64,000 nucleotides of DNA from Mycobacteriales bacterium (GTDB lineage: Bacteria; Actinomycetota; Actinomycetes; JAFAQI01), in assembly GCA_035547515.1 (NCBI GenBank), contig DASZUS010000008.1:28257-92256 (forward strand), read 5' to 3'. The position numbers were made by a program, and so were the translations under genes. Under the pieces are notes generated by a model. The model saw nothing but the letters and a program-made list of their open reading frames with translations. It was not told where the DNA came from and made no database searches. Positions 13,193 to 64,000 of this stretch are shown here, one piece after another (the first letter of the stretch is position 1; every line of letters starts with the position of its first letter).

Positions 13193-13228
13193 GCAGACAG
13201 TGTGGCGGACCCGAGCCCGCCCGTCGCG

Positions 13229-14302: not shown

Positions 14303-14357
14303 TCCGCACTTTTAGCGCCCAAACCGGAGGTCTCGCCGGAGCGGCACTCACGGACCT

Positions 14358-30408: not shown

Positions 30409-30419
30409 TCGATCTCTCC

Positions 30420-45503: not shown

Positions 45504-45513
45504 GCGACGGGCC

Positions 45514-48692: not shown

Positions 48693-51371
48693 GTGACCCC
48701 ACCAACACAACAAAGTAAGACTAGTTTTGTGGTGGTCGGCGGCGGTGCGGCAGGCACCCTCGTCGCGACGCGCCTGCTCGACGAGTCGGCGCGGCGCCAT
48801 CTCTCGATGACAGTCACGGTCGTCGAGCCCCGCGCGGCGCTCGGCCGCGGGATCGCGTACTCCGCGGCGGACCGCCGCCACGTCCTCAACGTGCCCGCGC
48901 TGAAGATGACCGCGTATCCGGAGGACGGCGAGCACTTCCTGCGGTGGCTCGCGCGTCACGGCCGCGAGGTCGCGGAGGCCGACTTCGTCCCGCGGGCGTG
49001 GTACGGCCAGTACCTCGACGACGTGCTCCGGGCCGCGGCGCGCCGCGCGAACCTTGCCGAGCTGCGCGTTGTGCGCGCCCGGGCGACAGGTCTCGAGCGG
49101 GTGGGCACGCGGGCTCGCGTCATGCTCGACACCGGCGAGGACCTGCCGCCGGCCGACGGTGTCGTGCTCGCGCTGGGGCACCTCGGCGTCGAGACCGGCT
49201 GGGCGCCGCCGGCCCTTCGCGAGTCGAAGCGCTTCATCGCCGACCCCTGGGCAGCCGGCGCCCTCGACGGCGTACCGGAGGACGCCGACGTGATGTTCGT
49301 CGGCTCGGGGCTGACGATGGTCGACGCGGCCCTCCAGCTCGACCGGCCGGGCCGGACGCTGCGGGTGGTCTCGCGCCACGGCCTGCTGCCGCGGCGGCAC
49401 GTGCGCGACCTGCTTCCCGCGATGGAGGCGCCGCAGTTCTCGTGCGAGGCGCCGACGCTGGCGGAGCTGCGCAGGGTGATGTCGGCGCACATCGACAAGG
49501 CGCAGCGGCGGTACGGCGACTGGCGTCCGGCGATCGACAGCATTCGCGCCCTGACCCCCAAGCTGTGGGCCGGCCTCGACCCGGCCGACCGTGCCGAGTT
49601 CGTGCGCACCGACGCTCGCGCGTGGGACGCGGTGCGGCATCGCATCCCGCCCGACAGCGCGGAGCTCATCCACCAGATGCGCGGGGCGGGCCGGCTCGTG
49701 CTCACTCCCGGCGAGGTGGCGGCGGTGGTCGAGAGCGACGCTGGCCTCGCCGTACGTCTCTCGGACGGCTCGTCGGCCATGGTCGGGGCAGTGGTCAACT
49801 GCACGGGACCCTGCGATCGGCCGGAGCGCAGCCGCGACCCGTTCGTCCAGTCGCTGCTGGCGGCGGACCTCGCGCGAAGCGGGCCGCTCGGGATCGGGTT
49901 CGACACGCGCCCGGACGGCCGCCTCATCGGGCGTGACGGCAGTGACGACTTGCCGCTGTTCACCCTCGCGGCGCTTCGCAAGGGCTCGCTGTGGGAGTCG
50001 ACGGCGATGCCCGAGATCCGGGTGCAGGCCGCCCACGTCGCGCGATGTCTCGTCGGGCCGGCCCGCCACGAGCCGGTGCGCCCGACCGACCAGTACGGGC
50101 TGGCCGTATCGACCACCGCCGAGGCGGCGGAGCTGTGGCGGCAGGCGCTGGACCGGATCCGCCGGGTGCAGGCGGGGGCGCCGGAGCTGATCGCGGCAGC
50201 CCTCGAGATCGACCCAGCCTTTGCCCTCGGGCACGCCGCTCTCGCGTTGCTGGCGCGCGAGTGCGAGGCCGACGTCGACGCGGCGGCGTCGCTGTCGTGT
50301 GCGATCGACGCGATGCGGCTGCGGGCGGACGCCCGGGAGATCAGCTTCATCCGCATGGTCGAGGCGCGGCTGGTCGAAGAGCCCGCCACCGCGGACGAGC
50401 AGCTGCTGCGGCACATCAAGCAGCATCCGATCGACTGCCTCGCGGTGAGCGCGGCGCTGCCGACGATCGCCTTCAGCGGGGTGGCGCAGCCGATCGAGCA
50501 GGCATGGGCGCTGGTCGACTCGCTCGCACCCGAGTACGGCGACGACTGGTGGTTTCGCAGTCTCGCGGCCTTCACCCGCCAGGAGCAGGAGCGCTTTGCC
50601 GAGGCCGAGGAGCTGGCCGAGCAGGCGCTCGCCTTCGAGCCGGCTGCCGGGCACGCCGTGCATGCCCGCGCACACATCACCTATGAGACCGGCGACCACC
50701 TCGCGGGTCTGGCCTGGCTGGATCGATGGATCGACGAGCACGGCGGGGACACCAACCACCGCGCGCACTTCGTGTGGCACGCGGCGTTGCACGAGATCGC
50801 GATGGGTGACTTCGACGCGGCGCTGCGGCGCTACCACGAGCAGCTCGCGCCGCCGCGGGTCACCGGGGCGCGGGCGCTGGTCGACTCGGCGTCGCTGTTG
50901 TGGCGGCTGCGGATGCTCGGCGTGTCGATCGGGTGTGCCGAGATGCTGCCGACCCTGGCAGCGGTGGACCAGTGCGTCTTCGACCGCCCGGCGACGACCT
51001 TCACCGCGCTTCATGCGGCCATCGGACTGGCCGGTGCAGGCGACCTCGCCGCTCTCGCCGCTCTGGAGTCCTACGCCGCCGAGCATCCCAACCGCTCGTT
51101 CGCGGTAGCCGTCGTACCGCTGTGCCGCGGGCTCGCGGCGGTGGCCGATAGCCGGCCGGCCGACGCGGTCGGCCCGCTCACCGCCCTGCGCACCATGGGG
51201 CTGCGCCGCTTCGGGGGGAGCGCGGCCCAGCAGGAGGTCGTGGAGGAGACGCTGCTGCACGCACTCGTCGCATCGGGCCGTCGGGCTGAGGCCGCGACCT
51301 TGCTGGACGAGCGGCACCAGCGACGGCGGTCCCCGGGCGACCAGCGCCGCCTGGAGGCTCTCCTCAGCTGA
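48693..51371 (+). CDS. FAD/NAD(P)-binding domain protein fused to a TPR (TTC38-like) domain
   Basis: 892 aa from a GTG start. The N-terminal Rossmann motif is FVVVGGGAAGTLVATRLL, with a second dinucleotide motif at MFVGSGLTMVDAAL. The C-terminal ~400 aa are helical repeats (HFVWHAALHEIAMGDFDAALRRY), resembling TTC38-type TPR proteins. The longer antisense ORF is an Arg-rich artefact. Confidence 0.6.
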   Translation: MTPPTQQSKTSFVVVGGGAAGTLVATRLLDESARRHLSMTVTVVEPRAALGRGIAYSAADRRHVLNVPALKMTAYPEDGEHFLRWLARHGREVAEADFVPRAWYGQYLDDVLRAAARRANLAELRVVRARATGLERVGTRARVMLDTGEDLPPADGVVLALGHLGVETGWAPPALRESKRFIADPWAAGALDGVPEDADVMFVGSGLTMVDAALQLDRPGRTLRVVSRHGLLPRRHVRDLLPAMEAPQFSCEAPTLAELRRVMSAHIDKAQRRYGDWRPAIDSIRALTPKLWAGLDPADRAEFVRTDARAWDAVRHRIPPDSAELIHQMRGAGRLVLTPGEVAAVVESDAGLAVRLSDGSSAMVGAVVNCTGPCDRPERSRDPFVQSLLAADLARSGPLGIGFDTRPDGRLIGRDGSDDLPLFTLAALRKGSLWESTAMPEIRVQAAHVARCLVGPARHEPVRPTDQYGLAVSTTAEAAELWRQALDRIRRVQAGAPELIAAALEIDPAFALGHAALALLARECEADVDAAASLSCAIDAMRLRADAREISFIRMVEARLVEEPATADEQLLRHIKQHPIDCLAVSAALPTIAFSGVAQPIEQAWALVDSLAPEYGDDWWFRSLAAFTRQEQERFAEAEELAEQALAFEPAAGHAVHARAHITYETGDHLAGLAWLDRWIDEHGGDTNHRAHFVWHAALHEIAMGDFDAALRRYHEQLAPPRVTGARALVDSASLLWRLRMLGVSIGCAEMLPTLAAVDQCVFDRPATTFTALHAAIGLAGAGDLAALAALESYAAEHPNRSFAVAVVPLCRGLAAVADSRPADAVGPLTALRTMGLRRFGGSAAQQEVVEETLLHALVASGRRAEAATLLDERHQRRRSPGDQRRLEALLS

Positions 51372-51447: not shown

Positions 51448-51828
51448 CTAGTCGTTGACGGTCGGAAGGCCTTCGGCGCGCCAGGCGCGGTAGCCGCCGA
51501 TCAGGTCCGTTGCACGCCGGATGCCCAGGTTGCGCAGGCTGTCGGCGGCGAGGCTCGAGGCGTAGCCCTCGTTGCAGCACAGCACCACCCACGCGTCGTA
51601 CGACGCGAACGGCAGTCGTGCCTCGGAGGCCGGGTCGAGCCGCCACTCGAGGACGTTGCGGTCAATCACCACCGCGCCGGGGATCTCGCCTTCGATGACC
51701 CGGTTCACCTCGGGGCGGATGTCGATGATGAGCGCGCCTTCTGCCTGCGCGGCGAATGCTTCCTTCGGGGTCAGCCGCGACAGCCGCGACCTGGCATTGG
51801 CCAGTGCCTGGCTGATCGTCATCGTCAT
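51448..51828 (-). CDS. single-domain rhodanese-like sulfurtransferase
   Basis: The ATG at 51828 gives 126 aa. The rhodanese pattern is LIIDIRPE...GEIPGAVVIDRN..EW...VVLCCNEGYASSLAA..L...G...DLIGGYRAW. ATGA overlap with the upstream cysteine dioxygenase gene. Confidence 0.75.
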   Translation of the reverse strand: MTMTISQALANARSRLSRLTPKEAFAAQAEGALIIDIRPEVNRVIEGEIPGAVVIDRNVLEWRLDPASEARLPFASYDAWVVLCCNEGYASSLAADSLRNLGIRRATDLIGGYRAWRAEGLPTVND

Positions 51829-52337
51829 GCCGGCACCGCGCTCGGTGCCCGCCGGCCGATGGCAGCCTCGCGGTCCTCTCGGGTCGAGACGGTGCGCACT
51901 CGCGCGAGCCCGCTCGGGTGCTGGGCGTAGAACGACATCTCCGACAGCGGTGGGGAGTAGGCATGCAGGCTCACCGCTGCCGCGGGTCCGGCGTTGTAGA
52001 CGTCGTGGACCGTCGTCGGGGAGATCGCCACGGACTTGCCCGCCGTGACAACCGTCGTACGGGTCTCCAGCGCCTCGGGCATTGCGCGGACCTCGGTCAG
52101 CGCGCCCTGGACGACGAGGAACGCGCCCGACGAACCGCCGTGGTCGTGCAGCTCGGTGCCTTGGCCGGTCAACCAGGTGAGCAACCAGATGTCCGCACAG
52201 TCGTTGCCTTGCAGCCGCCGCCACCAGCGGCCGGAGGCGTCGAATCGCGCCAGGCTGCGCCACTGCGAGGCGCGGTCGGCGAGCCGCTCGAGGACGGCTA
52301 CTAGCTGCGTTGCGTCGAGTGTCTGGAGGGAAGCCAT
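51825..52337 (-). CDS. cysteine dioxygenase type I family (cupin) protein
   Basis: The ATG at 52337 gives 170 aa (an alternative GTG is at 52358). The cupin metal motif is WLTGQGTELHDHGGSSGAFLVVQGALTE, with a later HDVYN...VSLHAYSPPL. Confidence 0.7.
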   Translation of the reverse strand: MASLQTLDATQLVAVLERLADRASQWRSLARFDASGRWWRRLQGNDCADIWLLTWLTGQGTELHDHGGSSGAFLVVQGALTEVRAMPEALETRTTVVTAGKSVAISPTTVHDVYNAGPAAAVSLHAYSPPLSEMSFYAQHPSGLARVRTVSTREDREAAIGRRAPSAVPA

Positions 52338-52355
52338 AGAGCAACTGTAGCAGAC

Positions 52356-52367
52356 CACTCAAGTAAC
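52356..52367. promoter_or_regulatory. conserved AT-rich motif CACTCAAGTAAC, copy 1, in the cdo leader
   Basis: It lies in the 34-bp gap between the stop of the PDO-rhodanese gene (52372) and the cdo ATG (52337). It matches 53831-53842 at 11 of 12 positions, with a 9-nt identical core CACTCAAGT. Confidence 0.4.
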
Positions 52368-52371
52368 TACA

Positions 52372-53748
52372 TTAAGACACGCTTAACGGCTCGACCAGGT
52401 CGTGCTCGCGCGCAGAGGCGAAGCTGTCGTCGACGAGCACGACCTGGTGGCCCGCACGGTCGAGCAGCGACGCGGCGATCGTGGCGCGGAAGCCGCTCGC
52501 GCAGTGCACCCACCAGCTGTGCTTCGGCAGCTCGGGTAGCCGCGCCATGAGCTCCGGCAGCGGCAGGTGCGTCGCGCCGGGGATGGCGCCGTCGCGGTCG
52601 CGCTCGTCATGGCGTCGCACGTCGAGCACCGTGGCGCCGCCCCGGCTCGCGTGGTCGAGCTCGGCGAAGGTCGCCCGGCGGAAGCTTCGGCGGGGCAGCG
52701 CCGGTGCGATCGAGTCGAGTGGGCCGTGCGCGACGGCTGTGGGCCGGTCGATGCCGATCCGGGCGAGCTGGCGTTGCGCCGCCGCGATCTGCTCGGCGCT
52801 CTCGCCGAGCAGGGTGAGCGGCTCGCCGTACGGGAAGATCCACCCGAGGTAGGTCGCGAACTGCGTGCCGAGCTCGACGGCGATCGACCCCGCCAGGTGG
52901 TCGGCGGCAAACTCGCGGCGGCTGCGGATGTCGACCACCCACTCGCCGGCGGCCAACCGCCGTGCGATCTCCTCGGCGTCCGCGGCGCGCGCCTCGCTGA
53001 GGTCGGCCGCGGTGACTCCCGCGGCGTTTCTCGGCGCCATGTGGGCGTAGTAGGCGGGGTACGGCGTGAAGCCCGCGACCACGGTGTGCACGAACTCGGC
53101 CTCGTCGGGCGCAGTGAGTGCGAGGTTGTTGCGGCGCTCGTCGCCGATGGTGCCACCGGCCGATGCGCTCGGGCTCGGGGGACCGGAGGAGCAGAAGCTG
53201 CCGAAGCCGTGGGTGGGGTAGAGCGCGGCGTCGTCAGGCAGCGAGTCGGCCAGCCGGCGTACCGAGCGGTACTGCGCGAGGGCGAGCGGGTGCGTGAGGT
53301 CGGGGCTGATCAAGTCGGTACGGCCCACTGCGCCGTAGAGCAAGGACCCGCCGCTGAACACCGCCGTCGCGCCGCCGGCATCCGTCACCACGTAGCTCAG
53401 GTGTCCGGGAGTGTGACCGGGCGTCGCGACGACGCGGACGCTGAGGTCGCCCACGAACAGCGTCGTGTCGTCGCCGACCGGAGTGCGCGGGAAGCCCACC
53501 TTCTCGCTGCCAGCCACCAGGTAGTCGACCTTCGCCGAGCGGGCGAGCGCCAGGCCGCCGGTCAGGTAGTCGTTGTGGATGTGCGTCTCGGCCACCGCGG
53601 CGAGCTCGAGGCCTAGCCGGTCGAGCACCTCGCTGATTCGGTCGATGTCGCGCTGCGGGTCGACCACCAATGCATACGACCCGTCGTGCACCACATAGCT
53701 ACGGTCGCCGAGCTCCTCGGTCGGAACTGTCTCAACCTGCACGTGCAT
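52372..53748 (-). CDS. persulfide dioxygenase (MBL fold) fused to two rhodanese domains (CstB-like)
   Basis: 458 aa from the ATG at 53748 (or 472 aa from the GTG at 53790). MBL motifs: ETHIHNDYLTGG and ATPGHTPGH. A middle rhodanese-like domain is followed by a C-terminal rhodanese with the active-site loop VHCASGFRAT (CX5R-type). Confidence 0.75.
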   Translation of the reverse strand: MHVQVETVPTEELGDRSYVVHDGSYALVVDPQRDIDRISEVLDRLGLELAAVAETHIHNDYLTGGLALARSAKVDYLVAGSEKVGFPRTPVGDDTTLFVGDLSVRVVATPGHTPGHLSYVVTDAGGATAVFSGGSLLYGAVGRTDLISPDLTHPLALAQYRSVRRLADSLPDDAALYPTHGFGSFCSSGPPSPSASAGGTIGDERRNNLALTAPDEAEFVHTVVAGFTPYPAYYAHMAPRNAAGVTAADLSEARAADAEEIARRLAAGEWVVDIRSRREFAADHLAGSIAVELGTQFATYLGWIFPYGEPLTLLGESAEQIAAAQRQLARIGIDRPTAVAHGPLDSIAPALPRRSFRRATFAELDHASRGGATVLDVRRHDERDRDGAIPGATHLPLPELMARLPELPKHSWWVHCASGFRATIAASLLDRAGHQVVLVDDSFASAREHDLVEPLSVS

Positions 53749-53830
53749 CCCGTCTCTCGAAGTTGTGACGTGTGTCACTGCGCCGCTCACGTCGCGTTCC
53801 CGTACCGGTCGTGCTATATCTATCTCAACT

Positions 53831-53842
53831 CACTCAAGTTAC
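53831..53842. promoter_or_regulatory. conserved AT-rich motif CACTCAAGTTAC, copy 2, in the divergent promoter region
   Basis: It lies in the AT-rich core (gtgctatatctatctcaactCACTCAAGTTACgcgggttagtcatcaatcta) of the intergenic region between the PDO-rhodanese gene (-) and the SBP56-like operon (+). A GGAGG ribosome-binding site is at 53876-53880. Confidence 0.4.
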
Positions 53843-53884
53843 GCGGGTTAGTCATCAATCTAGCGCCGACGCACGGAGGCAGGA

Positions 53885-56257
53885 ATGCGGTTCCGGTTGA
53901 GCAGTTCAAGACTTGTGGCGGTGGGTGCAGCGCTCGCCGTCGCGTCCGGAGGAGGGGTGGCAGCCGCGTCGACGGGAACGTCGGCCGCGAGCGGCTCGAG
54001 CTCCTTGCTTCCGACGATCACCCGCACCGTCGACACGATCAAAGCCGCGGGCAAAACGGTGGTCGGCAGCGTCAACTACACGGTCAACGAGCCGACCGAG
54101 TCGCGCGCGAGCGCGACCGACACCTACGGCAACCCGCTCGAGGGCCTCTCGCTCAAGGGCCTGCCGAGCCTGCCGGGCGTGGGGGAGGGCCTCCCGTTCG
54201 AGACCGGCAACAACCCGGGGCTGGACAACGAGCCGTCGAGTGAGAACACCGGCAAGTGCCCGCCGCCCGGCAACGGTCACGAGTACCTCATCGTGTGGGC
54301 CGGCAAGATGAACGCCGCCGACCTCACCGGTACCGACATCCTCGACCTGATCAACGGCGGTGCGGTCAACCCCGAGGGTCTGGCCTCCCAGATCCCGATC
54401 GAGTTCCTCGAGACCGGGTCGGACATGATGGCCACGATCGACGCCGAGCCGGGTTGCGCGACGTACGGCAAGGTCGTCAACGTCTCAGTCGTCAGCGGCC
54501 CGGATGGCGTGGAGAACGAGCCGCATCACATGCAGTACACGTGGTACCCCGGCCAGACGGTCTGGGCGGGCGGCCTGTTCACCTCGCGGCTGTTCACCTA
54601 CGACTTGTCCGACCTGCCGCAGGTCAAGCTGACCCGGATCGACGAGCCGTGGTCGACGCCCAGCGGCAGCATCTGGGACGCGTTCGCGACGCTCCCCAAC
54701 GGAGACGCGTACGGCACGCTCATGGGCGGTCCGCTCTACGCCTACGGCACCACGCCGGGCGCGGTCGTCGAGATCGCCGGCAACAACCACCCCGGCGCGC
54801 AGCCCGGCCAGATCCTCGGCGAGTGGCCGGCGTCCGGGTCGGAGGACCTGCTGAACTCGGCGAACACCAACGGCAGCGTGGGCGGCGCTCTCCTGTCGTC
54901 GGTCGGCTCGACGCTGGGGAGCCTGCCTGGTCTGGTGAGCAAGGGCAACGACGACGCGGGCATCAGCACGGCGAACGGTCACATCAAGTGCCCGGACTTC
55001 GGCAGCTGCGCCAACCCGCACGGCATCCAGATCCGAGCCGACCTCCACACGATGGTGACCTCGGACTACGCCGAGCCCGCCCAGATCATCGAGGACCCGG
55101 TCAAGCCGACCAACCCGTACTACTTCCGTCGTACGGTGCGCATCTGGAGCTTCGACGACAAGGGCTGCTCCGGCAACCCGACGCCGGGCGCCACGATCAA
55201 CAACCCGAAGATCTGCGCCATCGACGTGATGCCGCTCGGGCCGCGTGACGACTCGAACCCGGCCCACGGCGAGAACCTCGGGATCATGGAGAACGGCGCG
55301 ACCTGGGACTACCCGCTGCCTGACGGCAACGTGCCCAAGGGCTGGTTCTCCGAGTCGATGTGCGGTGGCGCGGTCTTCTACACGCCGGACATCACCGACA
55401 CCAAGGACCACCCGTGGCACGAGGTCTTCGACTCGACCGCGGCGGTGGCCGCACTGAAGTCCAATGGCGCAGGCAGGGTGCCCGGCGGTGGCGACCTGAA
55501 GAACGAACCGGCCGGCTGCGACGGCGCGGCGTGGGACGTCGTGAGCCCTGACAACCGGTTCCTCGGTCACGCGGTCAGCGGGCGCTACATCCTGCAGGAC
55601 GACTACGACGACGCCGGTACGCCGAAGATGGTCTACACCCTGAGCATCACCAAGCTGCTCGAGGCCGGCGACCACTACAAGTGCAACCTCGCGAACAACA
55701 TCCGCGCGCTCGCCGACCCGACGCTGGGCGGCAAGGACTGCCCGACGGTGGCCGGTGTGGTCCCGATCAACGACCCGACCTCGGGTGGCCCGCACTGGGC
55801 GGAGTTCGACAACTTCCGCCTGGCCGCGGTCAAGATCAAGGACCCGAAGACCGGCAAGACGGTGATCGACTACCACGCCCCGACCCGGATCGCGGAGGCG
55901 AACTACTTCGTCGCCCGGACCGGCGTCGACGGCAACCACACCGTCTGCATGATCAACATGAACCCGACCACGGGCTCGCTCTCGCTCGACACCAGCTTCA
56001 TCGACGAGACCGAAGGCACGCCCTGCGTCCAGTTCAACCGACGGGACTGGCCGGACCCGAACATCAAGGGGTTCTACAAGCCGCACTCGATGCTGTTCGT
56101 CGAGAACGACCCGCCGGCAACCGGTCTGACCCCGTACGGGCACAACTACGGCCCGAACTGCGAGTTCGGCAAGGTCGTGGACGGTCAGTGCCGCGGCTAC
56201 TGGGGCGAGCCGATCGACATGGGCGCTGATACCGCCGGCTTGAAGTACGAAGAGTGA
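53885..56257 (+). CDS. large secreted SBP56 (selenium-binding protein / methanethiol oxidase)-like protein, 790 aa
   Basis: Signal peptide [21 protein letters not shown]. The motif order is collinear with SELENBP1 as recalled from memory. [17 protein letters not shown] matches CGPGY..[29 protein letters not shown]...ENEPHHMQY matches [20 protein letters not shown]...[31 protein letters not shown] matches [45 protein letters not shown] matches [23 protein letters not shown]. The family assignment is not verified by any search. Confidence 0.55.
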   Translation: [790 protein letters not shown]

Positions 56258-59013
56258 GCGGCCGCCGCTGGCCGCGCCGGGGCAGGAACCTGCTCCGGCG
56301 CGGCGGCGGCGTCGCGCTGCTGACCGTCCTCATCGGACTCGTGACGGCAGCTCCCGCCGCCGCCCACCCGTACCTGCTCAGCAGCAACCCGGCGAACGGC
56401 GCCATCCTCGCGTCCGCCCCCGCCACGATCGACATCAGCTACACCGAGGGCCTCGACCGCCCGTACTGCTCGGTGGTGCTGGTCGCCCCAGACGGCACGC
56501 ACGTCGACACGCACCAGGTTGCCGCGTCCGCTCCGACCGAGCTGGCAGTGGCGCCGGACGCGTCCCTGTCCGAGCAGGGCACCTACGCCGTCAACTGGAC
56601 CGCGGTCGGCGACGACGGCCACACGGTCATCGGCAGCTTCGGCTTCAGCGTCGGCCACCCGAGCGCCAACGCGGCAGTCCAATCCGGCGGCACCGCCGTG
56701 TCGGGAACCGGGTCGAGCTCCGGCGGGGCTCGCCGGGTGCTCGGCGCGGTCCTGCCGTTCGCCGTCATCGTCCTCGCGGGACTGGTCCTGCTGTCGCGGA
56801 CCTTGGCCGCCGCCGGGGCCCGCGCGACTCGGCTGATCCGGGTGGCGTTCGCTGCCTCCGGCGCGCTCGAGCTTGCGCTGGCCGGGATCGCGATCTCCGA
56901 CCACGGGCTGTCGGCGTTCGGCTCGTCGGCGACCGGTCGCCGGCTGATCGCCGAGATCGCGTTGACAGCGGCGGCGGGCCTTGCCGGGCTCGCCCGGACC
57001 TCTCGCCGGCGGACCTGGCTCGGCGGGCTCGCCGCACTGGCACTGCTCGTCGTCCTTGCCGACTCCGGCCACGCGGCATCGCAACCGTCGTCGCGACGCG
57101 ACCTCGTCCTCGCCGTGTACTCCCTGCACCTGCTCGCGGTCAGCATCTGGATCGCTGCGATCGCCGCCGTCCTGCTCCGGCTTCGCACGAGGACAGATGA
57201 CGACCTTGCACCCGACCTGCATCGCTCGCTGCGCACCCTTGTCGCCGTGTCGCTTGTTGCGGTGCTCGCGACAGGCGTTGCGACGACGGACTGGGGCCTG
57301 CGCACCCTGAGCGATCTTCCGCACACCACCTATGGCCGGCTGGCGCTGACGCTTGCCGGCCTCTTCGTGGTCATGGTGTGCCTGGGCATTGCGGCGTCGG
57401 CGTCGCGTCGGATGATCGTGGTGGAAGCCGTCGTCGCGGCTGGCGCGCTCGTGGTGGGCGGCGTGATCAGCCAGTCGTCCCTGCCGCTCGACGAGCCCTA
57501 CGCGTCGCAGACATTTGCCGCCTCGACCGGTGTTGCGATGTCCGTGGCACCGGTCGGTGACGACGGCCTGGACATCGCCACGCTGGCGCCGGGCATCGTG
57601 GGCCGCAACACCCTGGTCCTCGAGGTCGGGCACGCCGACGAGGAGGACTTCCTGAGCCCGCAGTCAAGCGTGAGGGCGGTCACCGCGACCGTGTCCTGCG
57701 GCGGCTGCGGAGCGCCGGACCAGCACCTGACGTTGCAGCCGACCGGGGCGGGAGCGGAGTGGACGGCAGACGTCACGTTGCCGCGAGCCGCTTCGTGGCT
57801 GGTCACGGCGGCGGTACGGCGCGCTGGTGCCGCGGCGGAGGTCTCGCGGTTCTCCGAGCGCGTCACGCCCGCGGACCTTCCCGACCAGGTCGTCATCGGC
57901 GTCCCTGCGGCGTTGTCCGGACCTAGCGGATCGACCTGCCGTGACCAGCTGCTCGGGCTCCAGGTCGCGCTGCAGGATCTCAACGCGCAGGCAGCCGACC
58001 ACGGCGACCTCATGCGCGTCGTCGCAGTGGACCTGCACGACGGCGTCACGCAAGCGATGGCACGGCTGCACTCCCTCGGTGCGCGGCTGATCGCCATGCC
58101 GTGCGGCACCGCGGACCAGGTCGACCGAGCCACCTCCCTGGCCCGCGCCGCCGGGCTGCCGGTGGTGGCGGGGGAGGGCTCGGTGACCGACCGGCAGGCC
58201 GGGGTCTGGTCGACCCAGCCGTCGTGGCAGGCCGAAGGCGCCGCGATCGCCAACCAGGCGCTGCGCCAGGACGCTAAGAGCGTCGTCGCCGTTGCGGGGA
58301 CGACCGCGGTGGACCAGGCCGAGCTCGCCGGGTTGCGGCAAGGTCTCGCCGGGCATGCGGTGGCGCTGCGCGTGACGGGCTTTCCGGCGAGGCCGCGGAG
58401 CTTCGTCGGCGGTCTCTACCGTGCCGACACCGACGTGGTCGTGCTGCTCGGCGACCGCACGGAGGCCGATCCCACAGTGCACTCGTTCTCCGCCGTGAAC
58501 GCGGACACCGGATGGGCGCCGACGCACGGCATCCTTGCGTCGGCCCAGCTGATGAGCACGGACTTCATCAACGGCGCCGGCAACATCACCCGGGTCGGGG
58601 GGATCGAGTTCGCGAGCGACATCAACCCGTTCGACCCGATCGCCCAGTACTACGCCAGCCGGCTGCGCGCGCTCGCCCCCGGCGTACGCCCGACCTTCGA
58701 TGGCGTGCACGGTTACGACGCCGGTCTGCTGGTGGCGGAGGCGTTGCGTGACGGCGGCGGCCGGCCGTCGCCGTCGTCGCTCGCGAAGCTGCTCGGCTCG
58801 CACTTCACCGACTTCACGGTCGGCAGCTACCAACTCGACTGGCAGCCCGACGGCGGTACGTCGACGTCGCTGGCGTTCTTCCGCTCCACGTACGTCAACC
58901 CGATGGCGATGCCGTCGTTCGCGCCGGGCGGCGCCGCGGCCCTTGCCCACGAAGGAACATTTCTCAATGCCGGCGGCTTCGAACAAGTCGCCCCGTTTAG
59001 GAGGTTGTCGTGA
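56254..59013 (+). CDS. CopC - CopD - (YtkA-like?) - type 1 periplasmic-binding-protein fusion, 919 aa
   Basis: GTGA overlap with the upstream gene. A signal/TM segment is followed by a CopC domain that begins with the predicted mature N-terminal His. The CopC sequence is AAAHPYLLSSNPANGAIL...TIDISYTE...GTYAVNWTAVGDDGHTVIGSFGFSV. About 8 TM helices follow, consistent with CopD. Next is a roughly 120-aa beta-rich region containing SCGGCG. The C-terminal ~330 aa resemble LivJ-type PBP1 (VVIGVPAALSGPSG...AMPCGTAD...VVAVAGTTAVDQAE...FDGVHGYDAGLLVAEAL). Confidence 0.65.
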   Translation: MSGRRWPRRGRNLLRRGGGVALLTVLIGLVTAAPAAAHPYLLSSNPANGAILASAPATIDISYTEGLDRPYCSVVLVAPDGTHVDTHQVAASAPTELAVAPDASLSEQGTYAVNWTAVGDDGHTVIGSFGFSVGHPSANAAVQSGGTAVSGTGSSSGGARRVLGAVLPFAVIVLAGLVLLSRTLAAAGARATRLIRVAFAASGALELALAGIAISDHGLSAFGSSATGRRLIAEIALTAAAGLAGLARTSRRRTWLGGLAALALLVVLADSGHAASQPSSRRDLVLAVYSLHLLAVSIWIAAIAAVLLRLRTRTDDDLAPDLHRSLRTLVAVSLVAVLATGVATTDWGLRTLSDLPHTTYGRLALTLAGLFVVMVCLGIAASASRRMIVVEAVVAAGALVVGGVISQSSLPLDEPYASQTFAASTGVAMSVAPVGDDGLDIATLAPGIVGRNTLVLEVGHADEEDFLSPQSSVRAVTATVSCGGCGAPDQHLTLQPTGAGAEWTADVTLPRAASWLVTAAVRRAGAAAEVSRFSERVTPADLPDQVVIGVPAALSGPSGSTCRDQLLGLQVALQDLNAQAADHGDLMRVVAVDLHDGVTQAMARLHSLGARLIAMPCGTADQVDRATSLARAAGLPVVAGEGSVTDRQAGVWSTQPSWQAEGAAIANQALRQDAKSVVAVAGTTAVDQAELAGLRQGLAGHAVALRVTGFPARPRSFVGGLYRADTDVVVLLGDRTEADPTVHSFSAVNADTGWAPTHGILASAQLMSTDFINGAGNITRVGGIEFASDINPFDPIAQYYASRLRALAPGVRPTFDGVHGYDAGLLVAEALRDGGGRPSPSSLAKLLGSHFTDFTVGSYQLDWQPDGGTSTSLAFFRSTYVNPMAMPSFAPGGAAALAHEGTFLNAGGFEQVAPFRRLS

Positions 59014-59651
59014 AGCTCGCTCAGCTCGGCGGTGTCGCCGCGGGAGCGACAGCGGTTCTGCTGGTCTCCGGGTGCGGCGGCGGTTCGACCCCAAGCCCGT
59101 CGTCGCACCCGGTCACGGCGAGGCCCGCCGCGGCAGTGGCGCCGGTGACGACCGGCTGCACCGGGGCGATGCTGCCGAAGGGCTTCACGGTCGACGCCGC
59201 GCACACCGGCAAGCTCACGGCACACAACTACAGCGCGACGGCCGATGTGCAGGCGGCGCTGGAGTACGACCAGATGACCGACGGCGGCCGCGACGTATGG
59301 CTGAAGCGAGCGAAGTCGGGACGGATCACTCAGGTGGCCAGCTGCATCGCGATGCCGTTCCCGTCGGCGCACATCGCCAACCGGTTCTTCATGTCCTACC
59401 GGCAGCTGCGCACGGACGCGGGATCCATCGTGCATCGCATCGCGCTGCCGAAGCCGGTCGCCGGTCTGGCGGGCGTCACGGCGTACCTCGAGACGCAGCA
59501 GTCGTTCCGCGGGTACCACATCGCCTCGACGAACGTGATCGAGGCGGCGGGCCGGGACGGCTCACGGCTCGACATCGTGTCGGTAGCGGGCTCCTCGCCG
59601 TCAGCCGCGCTCGCGCAACGGCTGCTGGCCGCGATGGCGGGTGCCGCATGA
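59010..59651 (+). CDS. lipoprotein, hypothetical (213 aa)
   Basis: Lipobox AVLLVSGCGG. GTGA overlap with the upstream gene. No domain recognised. Confidence 0.55.
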   Translation: MKLAQLGGVAAGATAVLLVSGCGGGSTPSPSSHPVTARPAAAVAPVTTGCTGAMLPKGFTVDAAHTGKLTAHNYSATADVQAALEYDQMTDGGRDVWLKRAKSGRITQVASCIAMPFPSAHIANRFFMSYRQLRTDAGSIVHRIALPKPVAGLAGVTAYLETQQSFRGYHIASTNVIEAAGRDGSRLDIVSVAGSSPSAALAQRLLAAMAGAA

Positions 59652-60298
59652 GCGCGCGTCGCAGCGCTGTGGCCCTCGCCCTGGCAGCGCTCGGCTTCGC
59701 CGTGGCGGGCTGCAGCAGTGGCTCCTCGCCGTCCGCGAGCCCCTCCAGTCCGGCTGTCGCGTCGAGCCCGTCGACCGTGCAGACGGTCCCGCCCGGACCC
59801 GTCGTACCGAGCTCGCCTTCGCTGTCGCTGGCCGACATCGCCGATCCTGGGCTCGCATCCCACATCGGCGACGGCAAGCTGACCGTCGCCCAGGTCAGGC
59901 AGCTCATGCAGTTCTTCGAGAACAAGGTCAGCGCCGCGTATGCCCACGGCGACGCGGACGCCCTCGACCACTACCTCGCGGGGCCGATGCTGTCGGGCAA
60001 CCGGGCAACGATCAACCTGCTCAACAGCCAGAACAAGCTCAACGTCTACCGGATCAGGGTTGGCAAGGTGACGATCGAGACGAACGAGAAGACCAGCGTG
60101 ATCTTCGACATGACCGGCGACATGGTTCTCGACTACTTCCTCGACTCGAAGACGCACAAGGTCCTCGAGCACGGATTGCCCGGGCCGAGCCAGGTGCAGT
60201 TCGCGGTGTTCTTCAACGAGAACCCGAAGAACCACACGTGGTACTGGACCGGTGAGAAGTCCGAGACCGCTAGCGACTCGTCGGGGGCAGGCCAGTGA
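59648..60298 (+). CDS. lipoprotein, hypothetical, possibly NTF2-like fold (216 aa)
   Basis: Lipobox LGFAVAGCSS, then a Ser/Pro linker, then a ~140-aa domain (VAQVRQLMQFFENKVSAAYAHGDADALDHYL...VIFDM.GDMVLDYF). ATGA overlap with the upstream gene. Confidence 0.55.
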   Translation: MSARRSAVALALAALGFAVAGCSSGSSPSASPSSPAVASSPSTVQTVPPGPVVPSSPSLSLADIADPGLASHIGDGKLTVAQVRQLMQFFENKVSAAYAHGDADALDHYLAGPMLSGNRATINLLNSQNKLNVYRIRVGKVTIETNEKTSVIFDMTGDMVLDYFLDSKTHKVLEHGLPGPSQVQFAVFFNENPKNHTWYWTGEKSETASDSSGAGQ

Positions 60299-61296
60299 GG
60301 CGGGCGAGGCTCGCGGCCGCTCTCGCCGGTCTGGTGGCGGCGGCGGTCGCGGCGCCGGCCGCCGCCGCGTCCGCTGGGGCGCGCTCTGCCGGGCACCCCG
60401 GGATCCTGCGGTTGTCCGGCGTGCTGCGGCTGGCGAGCGGGAGCTGCGCCGGCGGAACGCCCAGCGGGAGCTATCTGTCCGTCACGTTCGGAACGCGCGC
60501 GATCGACAACCCGGCGTCGGACTGCGAAGGCGGCGCGGTGACGCTGCTCTCGCCAGGACGTGAGGGCCTATCGACGACGTCGTTCTCCCCGGCTTCGGAG
60601 GACGGATTCGACGGTCGCGGCAATGCCGTGGCCCAGTCGATCACCCGCCCGGTCGCCTTCGGCAAGCACCTGCTCGGCCTCGTCAGCTCGGCCCAGGACT
60701 TGCAGGACGCGCCAACCGGGCCTGGCTTGTTCTCGCTGCCGCACATCTACGTGACAGGGGACAAGGTCCTGGCCGACGTCCGGTCGGTGCAGGTGCTCTA
60801 CGGCGGGCAGGCCGACACCACCTGTGCGTCCGGAGCCGGAGCCGGGTGCTGGCTGATCGGCGCGGAGCGAGCCACGGGGACCTACGACGCGGCGACCCGC
60901 CACATCACGCTGTCGTGGTTTTCCGGGCAGTCGTTCGTGCCGCAGTCGGCGGGGACCGCAGTGCATCTGTCCGGCACCTTCGTGGGAGCCGAGCCGAAGC
61001 CCGTGAGCACGCACGGCGTGGTCGAGCTCGGCACGTCGAGCTTCAGCGCCGCTTCGCCGCCACCCGCAGTCGTCGCCGCGATCCGGCACAGCTCGCCACC
61101 TCCCGCTCGGGCGGCGAAGCGCCGCGCGGTGGCAGCTTCCGGCCCGGCCTCCGAGCGGTCGGCGCTCACCGGCGGGGAGGACTCGCCGCTGTGGCGCGTG
61201 CTCGGTTCGCCATTGGCGCTCGCCGTCGCGACGTTGCTGATCGGGGTCGACGGGCTGCTGCTGGCCGGCGCAGTGGGGCGAAGGCGGACGCGGTGA
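60295..61296 (+). CDS. secreted protein of uncharacterised paralog family (member 1) with C-terminal TM anchor (333 aa)
   Basis: Signal peptide (LAGLVAAAVAAPAAAAS). The ~200-aa core is shared with the 61293-62006 and 62613-63326 products: GTPSGSYLSV, FDGRGN, ATGTYDAATRHITLSWFSG, HLSGTF. An Ala/Pro-rich linker follows, then LALAVATLLIGVDGLLLAGAVGRRRTR. GTGA overlap with the upstream gene. Confidence 0.6.
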   Translation: MRRARLAAALAGLVAAAVAAPAAAASAGARSAGHPGILRLSGVLRLASGSCAGGTPSGSYLSVTFGTRAIDNPASDCEGGAVTLLSPGREGLSTTSFSPASEDGFDGRGNAVAQSITRPVAFGKHLLGLVSSAQDLQDAPTGPGLFSLPHIYVTGDKVLADVRSVQVLYGGQADTTCASGAGAGCWLIGAERATGTYDAATRHITLSWFSGQSFVPQSAGTAVHLSGTFVGAEPKPVSTHGVVELGTSSFSAASPPPAVVAAIRHSSPPPARAAKRRAVAASGPASERSALTGGEDSPLWRVLGSPLALAVATLLIGVDGLLLAGAVGRRRTR

Positions 61297-62006
61297 TCGC
61301 CCACCGTGGCCGCCGGGCACTGGCCGCCCTGACGGCGGGCGCTGCGCTCGTCCTCGCGGCGGGCTGCAGCGGCACGCACCAGACCACGCCGGACGCGACG
61401 CACCTCGACGGGCTGTTCCGCATCGCTCCCGGCGCCTGCCCGGCGGCCTCCGGCCTGCCTACCGGCAGCTACCTCGTCGTGCTCTCGGCCGCGTCGGGCG
61501 GCACCGTCGGCAACCCGCACGGCGGGTGCAAGAACCCGGCGTACACCCTGCTCGACCCTGGCACCGACGGCGGGCTGGTGACCGGAGAGTTCCAGCAGGT
61601 CTCGGGACCGACGTTCGACCGCCACGGCAACTCGCGCGACGGGCGGATCATCGCGCCGGTGCGCTTCGGCAAGCTCGACGTCGGCTTCGGCACGAGCTCG
61701 CGGGACGAGCAGGACGCGCCTGCCGGAGCGCCCGCCTTCCCGGTCCCGTCCGCAATCGTCCGGGGCAGCGCGCTGTCGGTGGACCTGCGCTCGTTGGTGG
61801 TGAGCTACGCGGGCGACGCGGACACGAGCTGCAAGACGACGTACGGCGTCGGCTGCTGGGAGCTCGGCTCGGAGAACGCCACTGGCACCTACGACGCAGC
61901 GACCGGCCACTACAGCATCCAGTGGTTCTCCGGTGCGTCGTTCACGCCGAAGGGCGACTCGATCGAGGTCCATCTCGAAGGCACGTTCGTCCCGTCCTCC
62001 TCGTGA
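61293..62006 (+). CDS. lipoprotein of the same uncharacterised paralog family (member 2, 237 aa)
   Basis: Lipobox ALVLAAGCSG. Core motifs: GLPTGSYLVV, LDPGTDGGLVTGEFQ, FDRHGNS, ATGTYDAATGHYSIQWFSG, HLEGTFVPSS at the end. GTGA overlap with the upstream gene. Confidence 0.6.
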   Translation: MIAHRGRRALAALTAGAALVLAAGCSGTHQTTPDATHLDGLFRIAPGACPAASGLPTGSYLVVLSAASGGTVGNPHGGCKNPAYTLLDPGTDGGLVTGEFQQVSGPTFDRHGNSRDGRIIAPVRFGKLDVGFGTSSRDEQDAPAGAPAFPVPSAIVRGSALSVDLRSLVVSYAGDADTSCKTTYGVGCWELGSENATGTYDAATGHYSIQWFSGASFTPKGDSIEVHLEGTFVPSSS

Positions 62007-62599
62007 GCCGGCGAGCGTCGCTGGCCATCGGCACCGCGATCCTCGTGGTGCTCGGCTGCGGAGCGGGCGTTGCGGCTGGCCGGGGTGGTGGGGACGCGTC
62101 GGCCAGCGCGGACCTGATCGCGCCGTTGTCGACGGCCGACCGGTCGGCGCTTGCCGCTGATCACCAGCTGGTCGAGAGCCTGCCGGGCGCCCTTGCCGAG
62201 GTGCCCCGCGCCGCGGCGGATGCGGCACGCGTCGACGCCGCGACGGCGAGGTCGGAGCTCGCCGGCAATGCCGCGCTGCACGACCTTGCTGAGGCCGCCG
62301 AAGGGCGCTCGGCGGCCGTGTCGCTGCTGGTCTCGGACTACCGGGAGCTGCTCGCCGGCCGCCCGTTGCACGACGTCGCCGCGATGCCGCAGGCGTTGGC
62401 ATCGCTGCAGGCAATTGAGGGCGACATCGTGCCGGCGGTGCGGGTGGTCGCCTTCACACACGGCCGGCGGCTGACGGCCACAGCGGCGTACGAGGCGGTC
62501 GCGGGCGACCACCGGGCGCCGGAGCTTGCCCGGCTGCTGGCCGACTGGTCGCAGGCCTACGGCGTGCTTGTGCTGATGGAGCAGAAGGCGCTCGGCTGA
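62003..62599 (+). CDS. lipoprotein, Ala-rich helical, hypothetical (198 aa)
   Basis: Lipobox-like AILVVLGCGA. GTGA overlap with the upstream gene. It is the last gene of the + strand operon. Confidence 0.5.
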   Translation: MSRRASLAIGTAILVVLGCGAGVAAGRGGGDASASADLIAPLSTADRSALAADHQLVESLPGALAEVPRAAADAARVDAATARSELAGNAALHDLAEAAEGRSAAVSLLVSDYRELLAGRPLHDVAAMPQALASLQAIEGDIVPAVRVVAFTHGRRLTATAAYEAVAGDHRAPELARLLADWSQAYGVLVLMEQKALG

Positions 62600-62612: not shown

Positions 62613-63326
62613 CTAGCTCGACGGGGTGAAGTGCCCCTGCAGGTGCCAGTAGCCGGAGAACCCGTTGAACGGCCCGCCGACGATCGAGCTGGTCCAGGTG
62701 AGGACGAAGGCGCCCGTCGCCGCGTTGTAGGTGCCGGTCACGGGCGAGGTGATGCCGGGAGAGGTGCCCCCCGGCTTCGGCGAGCCCTGGTTGAAGTACT
62801 GGTTGTTCCAGGACGCCGACCACGCCTCGAGCTGGCCGGAGAGCTTGCCGTCGTTGTCGAAGATCTGCGGCGCGGGAACCTTGATGTGGCTCTGGGGGTC
62901 GACCTGCTCGGTCTGGATCCCGAACTCGATGGCGGTGAACGTCCCCGGCTTGGTGATCCGGTCGGCGAGGGAGTTGCCGTGGGCGTCGAACGCCTTCGCC
63001 GGCGGCGGCTGGAAGGTGCCGGTGACCAGCCCGCCGTCGGTGCCGGGCAGCTCGGGGGAGTAGGACTTGTCGGTGCAGACCGAGTCCGGGTTCTGGAAGT
63101 ACGGGCCGTTGGCGAGGCTGCCGTTGGCGTCGATCATCCGGAAGTAGCTGCCGGTCGGGGTCCCGCTGCCCTTGCAGGAGCCCGGCGTCAGGTGGAATGT
63201 GCCGACGAGTGCTTTCGCGCCCTGCGGGGCCGTGGTGCCGCCTCCTGACGAGCCGCCTCCGCACGCGGCGCCGGCGACCGCGAGCGACGCGGCCGTGAGG
63301 GCGAGACGAGCGGTACGGCGGTTCAT
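62613..63326 (-). CDS. lipoprotein of the same uncharacterised paralog family (member 3, 237 aa)
   Basis: The ATG at 63326 gives the lipobox SLAVAGAACGG. Core motifs: GTPTGSYFRM, LPGTDGGLVTGTFQ, FDAHGNS, VTGTYNAATGAFVLTWTSS, HLQGHFTPSS at the end. It is convergent with the operon, 13 bp from its end. Confidence 0.6.
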   Translation of the reverse strand: MNRRTARLALTAASLAVAGAACGGGSSGGGTTAPQGAKALVGTFHLTPGSCKGSGTPTGSYFRMIDANGSLANGPYFQNPDSVCTDKSYSPELPGTDGGLVTGTFQPPPAKAFDAHGNSLADRITKPGTFTAIEFGIQTEQVDPQSHIKVPAPQIFDNDGKLSGQLEAWSASWNNQYFNQGSPKPGGTSPGITSPVTGTYNAATGAFVLTWTSSIVGGPFNGFSGYWHLQGHFTPSS

Positions 63327-63334
63327 GGCACTCC

Positions 63335-64000
63335 TCATGCGGCGACGGGATCGGTGGCGACCGAGGCTTCGGCCGGGGTGTCGGGACGGCGTTGCGGCGG
63401 TGCGCCGGCTGCGATCGCGGCGAAGAAGACCAACGCGCCCGGTACGACGAAGAACCAGGGGAACAGCATGAACGAGGGCAGCGACGAGATCGCCTGGAAG
63501 CGCGGCAGGCTGTCGCTCATCGCGCCGATCATCGGTGTCATGTCGTTGAGGATGTGCACCCAGTCGGCGTCGAGGGCGGTGATTGACGGGTAGTCGGCCG
63601 CGAGAGCGGCCTGGCTGACCCCGGAGGAGCGCAACGCCGGGACGATGTCGTTGCGGATCGCACCTTGTCCGACCGCCATCGTCGAGAAGTACTGCTGGAT
63701 CTGCCCGATCTTCTGAGGCGTCTCGATCTGCTTGAAGGTGCTCATCATGTCGGCGCCCTTCGGCGCCCGGTCGAACATCTGCGTCGCAACCGGGGCGAGG
63801 ATCAGCGCGATCCCGATCACGGCCAGGCCGATCCGGGTGGGCTGGGGCGGCAGCGCCCCGAGCAGGCCCGCGATGGCGAGCGCTGCCATGAGAACGCCGG
63901 GGATGACGAAGAACCACGGGAACAGCCGGAAGCTGGGCAGTGCGGCCATCGCCTGGTAGTTGCCGAGGTTGTCCTGCACCTTGTCGAGCAGGTCGGTCAT
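63335..64000 (-). CDS. membrane protein with internally duplicated TM module (at least 221 aa; start coincides with the window edge)
   Basis: An ATG sits exactly at 63998-64000, so the gene may extend beyond the window. Two copies of a module are present: YQAMAALPSFRLFPWFFVIPGVLMAALAIAG and FQAISSLPSFMLFPWFFVVPGALVFFAAIAAG. A ~110-aa soluble region separates them. The stop lies 8 bp upstream of paralog 3's start. Confidence 0.5.
   Translation of the reverse strand: MTDLLDKVQDNLGNYQAMAALPSFRLFPWFFVIPGVLMAALAIAGLLGALPPQPTRIGLAVIGIALILAPVATQMFDRAPKGADMMSTFKQIETPQKIGQIQQYFSTMAVGQGAIRNDIVPALRSSGVSQAALAADYPSITALDADWVHILNDMTPMIGAMSDSLPRFQAISSLPSFMLFPWFFVVPGALVFFAAIAAGAPPQRRPDTPAEASVATDPVAA

Follow-up and report, generated by a model that had tools for sequence, protein, structure and literature searches.

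A candidate copper beta-propeller remotely related to SBP56 and its CopC-CopD partner in a seven-gene operon for exported proteins of a Mycobacteriales genome

We analysed a stretch of 64,000 nucleotides (nt) from a soil actinobacterium of the Mycobacteriales (contig DASZUS010000008.1, positions 28,257 to 92,256; hereafter the window), and in particular a block of seven genes, g1 to g7, that follow one another on the + strand at 53885-62599. Open reading frame (ORF) analysis joins them by six start/stop overlaps of 4 nt: GTGA at 56254, 59010, 60295, 61293 and 62003, and ATGA at 59648. The genes, and the control region in front of them, are as follows.

53764-53884, no strand: divergent control region, with a palindrome, an invariant block and a ribosome-binding site (RBS)
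53885-56257, + strand: g1, 790 amino acids (aa), RBS GGAGG; putative copper redox enzyme, predicted to be exported by a Sec signal peptide and to adopt the SBP56-type seven-bladed beta-propeller fold
56254-59013, + strand: g2, 919 aa; CopC-CopD membrane fusion, detailed below
59010-59651, + strand: g3, 213 aa; orphan lipoprotein with invariant C50 and C112, part of the g1-g4 core
59648-60298, + strand: g4, 216 aa; orphan lipoprotein with an invariant TWYWT motif, part of the g1-g4 core
60295-61296, + strand: g5, 333 aa; signal peptide, four-Cys all-beta domain of ~200 aa, Pro/Ala-rich linker, C-terminal transmembrane helix and basic tail
61293-62006, + strand: g6, 237 aa; lipoprotein with the same all-beta domain as g5
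62003-62599, + strand: g7, 198 aa; signal anchor or atypical lipobox, then a region rich in Ala whose composition suggests helix

The genes, their coordinates and the positions and letters of all six overlaps are exactly those of the first-pass annotation. Identical public contigs (L085/L086), on which genes had been called independently, again carry seven genes of equal lengths, and g4 and g6 match the hypothetical proteins VHB69_01230 and VHB69_01240 of a Mycobacteriales metagenome-assembled genome (MAG) with 100% identity. Start-codon choices are supported by the orthologous operons, as overlaps of 4 nt or 1 nt at the g2-g7 junctions are kept in seven loci (L003, L004, L005, L006, L008, L081 and L082). 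The g1-g2 overlap is found in the closest relatives only, a gap of 24-165 nt standing there elsewhere. The G+C content of the window is 66-75%, and further 4-nt overlaps occur at 3394, 47157 and 51825. Since such overlaps are common in a high-GC genome, the run of six indicates one operon and is no oddity by itself. No terminator-like site above chance was found in a scan of the operon. We conclude that g1 to g7 constitute a single operon with translational coupling.

A signal peptide or lipobox had been proposed for all seven products, and an export signal was seen in each. Sec-type signal peptides are present on g1, g2 and g5. Lipoboxes, defined as [LVI][ASTVI][GAS]C after the hydrophobic region of the signal peptide with a conserved Cys, were found in g3 (LVSGC), g4 (AVAGC) and g6 (LAAGC), and their Cys is invariant or at least 90% conserved among orthologs. 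The hydrophobic N-terminal segment of g7 is either a signal anchor or an atypical lipobox with the non-canonical sequence VLGC.

The relation of g1 to SBP56 is remote. The single sequence gave no match in the PDB, and the profile of its family gave only one 38-residue match, to the archaeal SBP56 structure 2ECE (E 0.03). Nine g1 relatives scored 11-30 bits with Pfam PF05694 (SBP56, cut-off 34 bits), over profile positions 31-72 only, and where relatives carry the Pfam label SBP56 the match is sub-threshold and limited to this 40-residue motif. As direct sequence searches were uninformative, the relation was established by a fold search and by profile-profile alignment. The AlphaFold (AF2) model of g1, computed with 27 family members, has a predicted template-modelling score (pTM) of 0.75 and a mean predicted local distance difference test score (pLDDT) of 68. 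A Foldseek search with this model placed 2ECE on top (E 4.2e-14, template-modelling score 0.69 when normalised to the target), well above generic propellers. Thiocyanate dehydrogenase (TcDH, 5F75) came at rank 23 with a target-normalised score of 0.40, and both TcDH and nitrous oxide reductase (N2OR) were absent at E ≤ 1 from the g1 profile search. With hhalign, the g1 family aligned to an SBP56 profile with 85% probability (E 6e-6). This profile was made of human SELENBP1 and 2ECE, and the SELENBP1 sequence used was validated by its 358-bit match to 2ECE.

In the hhalign alignment, the NEPHH motif of g1 (H214/H215, invariant in the 27 family members) falls on H73/H74 of SELENBP1, so that the XHHX motif (SELENBP1 H73/H74; H89/H90 in the methanethiol oxidase MtoX) is retained. 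This HH pair is essential in SELENBP1 (PMC10362175), and together with the C-terminal H412 it provides the proposed copper ligands of MtoX (PMC5739008). The invariant H734 of g1 falls on SELENBP1 H457 / MtoX H412, solely in the greedy extension of the alignment (mact 0.05). Six invariant and two nearly invariant His are distributed along the propeller of the family; invariant residues of g1 are H214, H215, H379 (in SCANPHG), H637, H685, H734 and C375. An arrangement of one conserved His per blade, lining the propeller channel, was considered, but predicted strand order gave it no clear support and it is not claimed. A 603-aa ORF at 24966, examined as a possible g1 paralog when the long ORFs of the window were checked, proved to be a fusion of a hydrolase and a short-chain dehydrogenase/reductase, and no relative. 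The assignment of g1 as SBP56-like in the first-pass annotation was therefore right, the relation being a distant one, as shown by the fold search with 2ECE on top and by the profile comparison. Going by alignment and model, g1 appears to be a remote sister of SBP56 whose putative metal site is partly retained and partly rebuilt. We infer copper in g1, and catalysis by it, from homology, the conserved His, the CopC/CopD partner and the cupredoxin neighbours described below.

The product of g2 had been described as a fusion of CopC, CopD and a periplasmic-binding protein (PBP), and this description holds: CopC is above threshold in g2 itself, and CopD and the PBP domain are recognised in its orthologs. 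An immunoglobulin (Ig)-like domain lies between the last two. The segments of g2 are listed below.

Residues 1-37, + strand: signal peptide, ending AAA|HP
Residues 38-133, nt 56365-56652, + strand: CopC, with N-terminal His38 and D121-x-H123
Residues ~155-410, nt 56716-57483, + strand: CopD-type polytopic region, from hydropathy segments
Residues ~430-545, nt 57541-57888, + strand: Ig-like domain with invariant C482-x-x-C485
Residues 561-919, nt 57934-59010, + strand: divergent type I PBP domain, from ortholog and profile matches

CopC (PF04234) was matched with E 5e-17 and 63 bits for a threshold of 23.3, and the NCBIfam library also returned CopC/CopD. Cleavage is predicted at AAA|H and would leave His38 as the N-terminus of mature g2. 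His38, D121 and H123 are invariant in ten g2 orthologs from three phyla; for YcnJ/CopC, the histidine brace that holds Cu(II) is defined by an N-terminal His and DxH (PMC12362106), and we consider this site of g2 to be intact as judged from its residues. About eight hydrophobic segments follow CopC, in residues 160-410. In g2 itself the CopD model NF033808 reached 47 bits for an NCBIfam cut-off of 195 and Pfam PF05425 was silent; among ten orthologs, PF05425 was matched by 7 (best 4.9e-13) and CopC by all. The C-terminal ~500 residues would lie outside the cell. The g2 C-terminus alone had no match to a PBP family in Pfam, and Peripla_BP_6 (PF13458) was matched by 3 of the 10 orthologs (best values 2.6e-12 and 2.7e-18). 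A profile of the domain from 11 orthologs found 3LOP (1.6e-5) and 3HUT (2.5e-4) in the PDB. A domain search found no YtkA domain in g2 and nine orthologs, which have the Ig-like CxxC domain and the PBP domain instead. The possibility that the PBP domain is a duplicate of the binding protein of a neighbouring ABC transporter (45514-47160) was rejected, as the two share no similarity. No SCO1/SenC or MauG was detected among g2-g7 in Pfam and NCBIfam scans.

For the five remaining products, g3-g7, searches of Pfam, NCBIfam and the PDB found no relative in any of the five, as anticipated when they were described as having no recognisable domain. A search of 1.84 billion proteins yielded no more than 20 representative clusters for the g3 family. 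Fifty-five homologs of g4 were found, all hypothetical; a Tim44/NTF2-like hint (E 0.046) is weak and below the Pfam cut-off, and two distant g4 homologs likewise lie within g1-g2-g3-g4 operons. Both g3 and g4 are found essentially only in operons of the g1 type. Profile matches of g3 and g4 in the PDB (e.g. LpqN) covered the signal peptide and lipobox region only and were discarded as uninformative. As had been noticed, g5 and g6 are paralogs: they share their ~200-aa four-Cys domain with 45% identity (BLASTP, E 4e-51). The C-terminal anchor of g5, transmembrane helix and basic tail, is conserved in orthologs. The AF2 model of g6 is confident (pLDDT 87, pTM 0.81) and all-beta, and a Foldseek search with it against the PDB gave nothing significant (best E 0.5); its 61 homologs are all hypothetical. 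A longer g7-like protein occurs in locus L081.

A third copy of the g5/g6 domain lies convergent to the operon:

62613-63326, - strand: lipoprotein of 237 aa starting at ATG 63326, paralog of g5/g6

Its identity to g6 is 36-37%. A longer ORF of 434 aa (62613-63917, - strand) was rejected as the gene, because codon-position GC indicates coding in the last 237 codons only, and the signal peptide agrees. In L005 and L006, homologs of this paralog lie on the upstream side of the operon. In the window it is preceded by the gene of a membrane protein of 221 aa in which hydrophobic motifs are duplicated (63335-64000, - strand, at the window edge).

We next consider how far the operon is conserved. 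A scan of one genome per species, over 185,579 species, confirmed 410 stretches encoding g1 relatives; 88 loci were analysed, of which those from the scan are the best 80 of the 410 stretches. Two clades were distinguished. Clade A groups relatives whose identity to g1 is 53% or more, among them those of Mycobacteriales, Frankiaceae, Sporichthyaceae, Acidimicrobiia, Chloroflexota and Dormibacterota. Counting only loci with enough downstream sequence (eligible loci), g2 directly follows g1 in 21/23, and g3 and g4 are present in 18/19 and 17/19. For g5, g6 and g7 the counts are 9/15, 9/15 and 4/10, and the carriers are close actinobacterial relatives only. The seven genes do not co-occur as one block: the conserved core in clade A is g1-g4, across Actinomycetota, Chloroflexota and Dormibacterota, and g5-g7 are restricted to the closest actinobacterial clade. 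In Dormibacterota contig DATARS010000177.1 (L015), from the same MAG as L014, a second g1 paralog has no g2-g4 in the 10 kb downstream, and is an exception to the g1-g2 pairing rule.

The more distant clade B consists of proteins of ~600 aa with ~40% identity to g1, from Pseudonocardia (including P. sulfidoxydans), Kutzneria, Saccharopolyspora, Amycolatopsis, Lentzea, Sporichthya and Solirubrobacterales. Genes g3-g7 are absent from this clade. Directly downstream, 42/59 clade-B loci carry a gene for a membrane protein of ~600 aa that matches CopD weakly and is homologous with residues 155-828 of g2 (hhalign 99.4%, E 1e-21). The pairing in both clades suggests that the ancient unit is an SBP56-like propeller with a CopD-Ig-PBP-like membrane protein. 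To judge from these alignments and gene orders, clade A probably gained CopC, g3 and g4, and one of its subclades g5-g7.

In the control region, a CRP/FNR-like palindrome TGTGAC-N4-GTCAC (N4 = GTGT) lies at 53764-53778, and an invariant block GTGCTATATCT..CAAC.CACTCAAGTTA.G.GGG, containing an imperfect inverted repeat, at 53811-53848. Both are kept in L001, L003, L004 and L008 though the flanking proteins have diverged, and they are candidate operator and promoter elements.

A role in sulfur metabolism had been proposed without reference to the genes upstream of the operon, and these lend it support:

52372-53790, - strand: CstB-like persulfide dioxygenase (PDO) of the metallo-beta-lactamase (MBL) fold with rhodanese domains (Pfam Lactamase_B and Rhodanese)
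51825-52358, - strand: CDO_I thiol dioxygenase of the cysteine dioxygenase (CDO) type, 177 aa (PF05995 at 4.2e-22, above cut-off)
51448-51828, - strand: single-domain rhodanese, 126 aa (PF00581 at 7e-11), with a 4-nt overlap with the CDO gene
48693-51371, + strand: FAD/NAD(P)-binding protein, 892 aa (PF13454)

The CstB-like gene is divergent from g1, and its product matches 3TP9 (4e-49), 3R2U (3e-40), ETHE1 4CHL (1.5e-13) and BpPRF in the PDB. The CDO_I gene is also present in L001 and L085. For the FAD protein we found no PDB relative and no informative NCBIfam match. Genes for the PDO and the FAD protein adjoin g1 homologs in both clades, and in L081 a 935-aa protein encoded beyond the operon end fuses FAD, MBL and rhodanese domains. 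A YeeE/YedE-type Sulf_transp gene (PF04143) is found two genes downstream of the g1-type gene in 16 clade-B loci (e.g. L037, 13796-14671, and L058, 13002-14567). In L081 (20506-22466) and L087 (13912-15368) the operon ends with a BNR/sortilin-like beta-propeller and a small cupredoxin (PF00127/PF13473). AhpC/TSA peroxiredoxin and a 163-aa conserved protein are recurrent in 7-8 clade-A loci, and AhpC/TSA lies upstream in seven Chloroflexota/Dormibacterota loci.

Other flanking genes were also recorded. Rrf2 and LuxR-type response regulators are recurrent near the clade-B pair. In L082 (GCA_000763215.1; clade A, outside the actinobacterial subclade), large and small RuBisCO subunits and a CbbX-like AAA protein adjoin the operon (12632-15114), and AhpC/TSA peroxiredoxin and the 163-aa conserved protein are encoded upstream (1608-2090). 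In the window, 41829-48617 (- strand) includes a gene for a 1224-aa polypeptide with two Liv-type permease and two ABC (ATP-binding cassette) ATPase domains. This gene follows those of a 486-aa and a 548-aa protein on the - strand, neither with a family match here; the L001 ortholog of the 548-aa protein is a Peripla_BP_6 protein, and the arrangement is conserved in L001. In the zone 17-25 kb upstream, an alkyl-sulfatase-like MBL protein (Alkyl_sulf_dimr; 29134-30573, - strand) and a flavin monooxygenase of the flavin-containing monooxygenase/Baeyer-Villiger type (34986-36476, + strand) may be further organosulfur or xenobiotic genes.

From these observations we consider it somewhat probable that the operon encodes an extracytoplasmic, membrane-tethered, copper-dependent redox enzyme for a reduced sulfur compound, equipped with its own copper-handling partner, whose product is finished by the neighbouring cytoplasmic persulfide-oxidation genes. 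In such a system, g1 would leave the cell unfolded via Sec and fold outside into an SBP56-type seven-bladed beta-propeller; of the active site of methanethiol oxidases it would retain the HH pair and probably also the C-terminal His, with the remainder remodelled. Cu(II) would be captured by the CopC histidine brace of g2 and handled via its CopD membrane domain and its CxxC-bearing Ig domain, while the PBP-like domain could dock g1 or bind a ligand; g2 would then act as a dedicated metallation or partner protein. The lipoproteins g3 and g4 and, in this clade, g5, g6 and g7 might tether the otherwise soluble g1 to the membrane or aid its assembly, tethering being suggested by their anchors and by how exclusively they co-occur. 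As sulfur product, either sulfide or sulfane sulfur would result, to be consumed in the cytoplasm by the CstB-like PDO-rhodanese, the CDO-type dioxygenase and the rhodanese. The substrate class, the formation of a physical complex and the roles of g3-g7 are the parts of this scheme that we infer.

Several results weigh against this proposal. The first-pass annotation had named PF05694 as a check on g1, and lack of a hit as a refutation; no match was found at E ≤ 1. The NCBIfam MtoX equivalog NF052453 scores 34.2 bits, over residues 175-261 only, for a cut-off of 650, and the g1 model itself is only moderately confident. Residues needed for SELENBP1 activity besides the HH pair, namely the HXXH motif, D189 and E252 (PMC10362175), are not kept; the two acidic residues are needed for copper binding as well. 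Opposite the HXXH motif (SELENBP1 H137/H140; MtoX H140) hhalign places A268 and a gap, and no conserved HXXH is present anywhere in the g1 family alignment. D189 stands opposite P378, beside the invariant H379, and E252 opposite the invariant G452, both in low-confidence parts of the alignment. With these residues lost, the chemistry of g1 may differ, or g1 may not be catalytic. CopC is absent from most clade-B partners, which weakens copper delivery as the conserved role of the partner. Finally, sulfur genes occur within 10 kb in 8/29 clade-A and 6/59 clade-B loci, many of which have short flanks.

Other functions were weighed on the same evidence. If g1 were a true methanethiol oxidase, it would convert methanethiol and O2 into formaldehyde, H2S or sulfane sulfur, and H2O2, with CopC/CopD taking the place of SCO1/SenC. 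The SBP56 fold, the HH motif and the probable C-terminal His agree with this, as does the homolog in P. sulfidoxydans, an organosulfur degrader (L066). PDO and rhodanese neighbours suit H2S or sulfane-sulfur products (PMC10936201), and AhpC neighbours suit production of H2O2. We nevertheless hold this unlikely, because g1 scores far under the MtoX and PF05694 thresholds and has lost HXXH, D189 and E252, homologs of MauG and SCO1 are absent from the operon, no gene for handling formaldehyde was seen adjoining it, and the cupredoxin of orthologous operons suggests that a carrier, and not O2, accepts the electrons. A multinuclear copper or copper-sulfide centre, as in TcDH or N2OR, could alternatively oxidise inorganic sulfur, with electrons passing to cupredoxin and the respiratory chain and with g2-g7 as assembly machinery. 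The eight conserved His, six of them invariant, along the propeller would suit such a centre, and so would the cupredoxin and BNR-like gene of L081 and L087 and the RuBisCO/CbbX genes of L082; in TcDH the copper site is trinuclear and electrons go to a dedicated acceptor (PMC9456337), and TcDH clusters too hold copCD, ABC-transporter and BNR-repeat genes (PMC5744179). This is quite improbable, given that TcDH came far behind SBP56 in the fold search, that profile searches showed no TcDH/N2OR sequence similarity, and that the operon of the window itself has no cupredoxin.

The operon might also serve copper acquisition or homeostasis, with g2 as a YcnJ-like importer and g1 and the lipoproteins as extracellular binders that sequester or hand off copper, none being an enzyme. 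Such a role would be in line with the complete CopC Cu(II) site and the CopD domain of g2, with the many conserved His of g1, and with the fact that YcnJ acts with the extracellular copper-binding YcnI (PMC12362106). It is quite improbable in our view: in clade B the propeller stays paired with its partner even though CopC is missing from most of these partners, the flanking genes scanned showed neither a regulator that senses copper nor a gene for copper efflux, the recurrent neighbours are sulfur-oxidation and not copper genes, and a 790-aa propeller would be an unusual metallochaperone. A bolder version of the copper-dependent sulfur enzyme that we favour is rather improbable: g1 and its more than 400 relatives would be copper beta-propeller enzymes that work outside the cytoplasm, a family so far unrecognised and sister to SBP56, with a rebuilt and possibly multinuclear site. 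Instead of methanethiol they would oxidise some other sulfur compound (sulfide, polysulfide, thiosulfate, thiocyanate, or one derived from COS/CS2) and pass electrons to cupredoxin for energy conservation, assembled and tethered by the CopD-Ig-PBP protein and orphan lipoproteins of new folds, in soil Actinomycetota, Chloroflexota and Dormibacterota.

If g1 is catalytic, the 410 confirmed stretches represent a large uncharacterised branch of the SBP56/methanethiol oxidase superfamily, in abundant soil phyla whose enzymes consuming volatile and reduced sulfur are poorly known. The pairing of a propeller with a CopD-family fusion is a tractable case of client-specific extracytoplasmic copper handling in Gram-positive-type cells, and suggests a role beyond general uptake for the CopD family, which is little understood. 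The accessory proteins offer structural biology new material, among them g6, whose confidently predicted fold has no relative in the PDB. As the two-gene core has cultured carriers (Pseudonocardia, Kutzneria, Saccharopolyspora, Sporichthya and Carbonactinospora), the hypothesis is directly testable.

Four known systems invite comparison. MtoX is copper-dependent and encoded together with SCO1/SenC and mauG (PMC5739008), so that the account of bacterial SBP56 given in the first-pass annotation was accurate. With MtoX/SBP56 (Hyphomicrobium sp. VS, Ruegeria pomeroyi, human SELENBP1), g1 shares the seven-bladed SBP56 fold and the N-terminal motif DF(L/I)AV(I/V)D...TYGKVV...E(P/L)HH and, with MtoX, a signal peptide for export, a copper-handling protein encoded in the operon and a link to sulfur metabolism. 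It differs by its scores below both family thresholds and its non-conserved HXXH, D189 and E252, as well as by its size, 790 aa with an N-terminal extension and insertions as compared with ~435-470 aa. Its partner is a CopC-CopD-Ig-PBP fusion, without MauG, where MtoX has SCO1/SenC and MauG; five orphan anchored proteins are added, and the hosts belong to Gram-positive or monoderm-type phyla.

The TcDH cluster of Thioalkalivibrio also places a copper beta-propeller sulfur enzyme beside copC/copD, with an ABC transporter and a BNR-repeat protein nearby, and these genes are co-induced with the enzyme, copCD on thiocyanate (PMC5744179). However, g1 is structurally nearer to SBP56, TcDH clusters encode CopC and CopD separately, on the opposite strand, whereas g2 is a single fusion with a PBP domain, and TcDH is exported by the twin-arginine (Tat) route while g1 has a Sec-type signal without twin arginine.

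Fusions of CopC, CopD and an extra domain are known from YcnJ (PMC12362106, PMC13344008). YcnJ (CopC-CopD-YtkA) with YcnI in Bacillus subtilis, and YobA-YebZ-YebY in E. coli, resemble g2 in having an extracellular N-terminal CopC brace, CopD and a further extracellular domain, with accessory extracellular proteins or lipoproteins and metallation of extracytoplasmic copper enzymes. Where YcnJ has YtkA, g2 has the Ig-like CxxC and type I PBP domains; and YcnJ belongs to a general uptake locus regulated by CsoR/YcnK, whereas g2 is encoded with, and phylogenetically tied to, one client, g1. The divergent CstB-like MBL-rhodanese fusion and the extra rhodanese and thiol dioxygenase genes recall the cst-type genes (CstB), which differ in that no CstR, CstA or sulfide:quinone oxidoreductase was identified adjoining the locus, and in the pairing here with a secreted propeller operon.

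The claim that the system is of a type not described therefore stands in part. A literature search on the g1 family, on SBP56 with CopD and on actinobacterial mtoX found no specific description of it, but the TcDH cluster already sets CopC/CopD beside a copper-containing propeller enzyme of sulfur metabolism (PMC5744179). That an exported enzyme of this kind is encoded together with a protein delivering its copper is familiar from both MtoX/SCO1-MauG and TcDH/CopCD; what is new is the divergent propeller family, its CopD-Ig-PBP partner, the orphan anchored accessory proteins and the taxa in which they occur.

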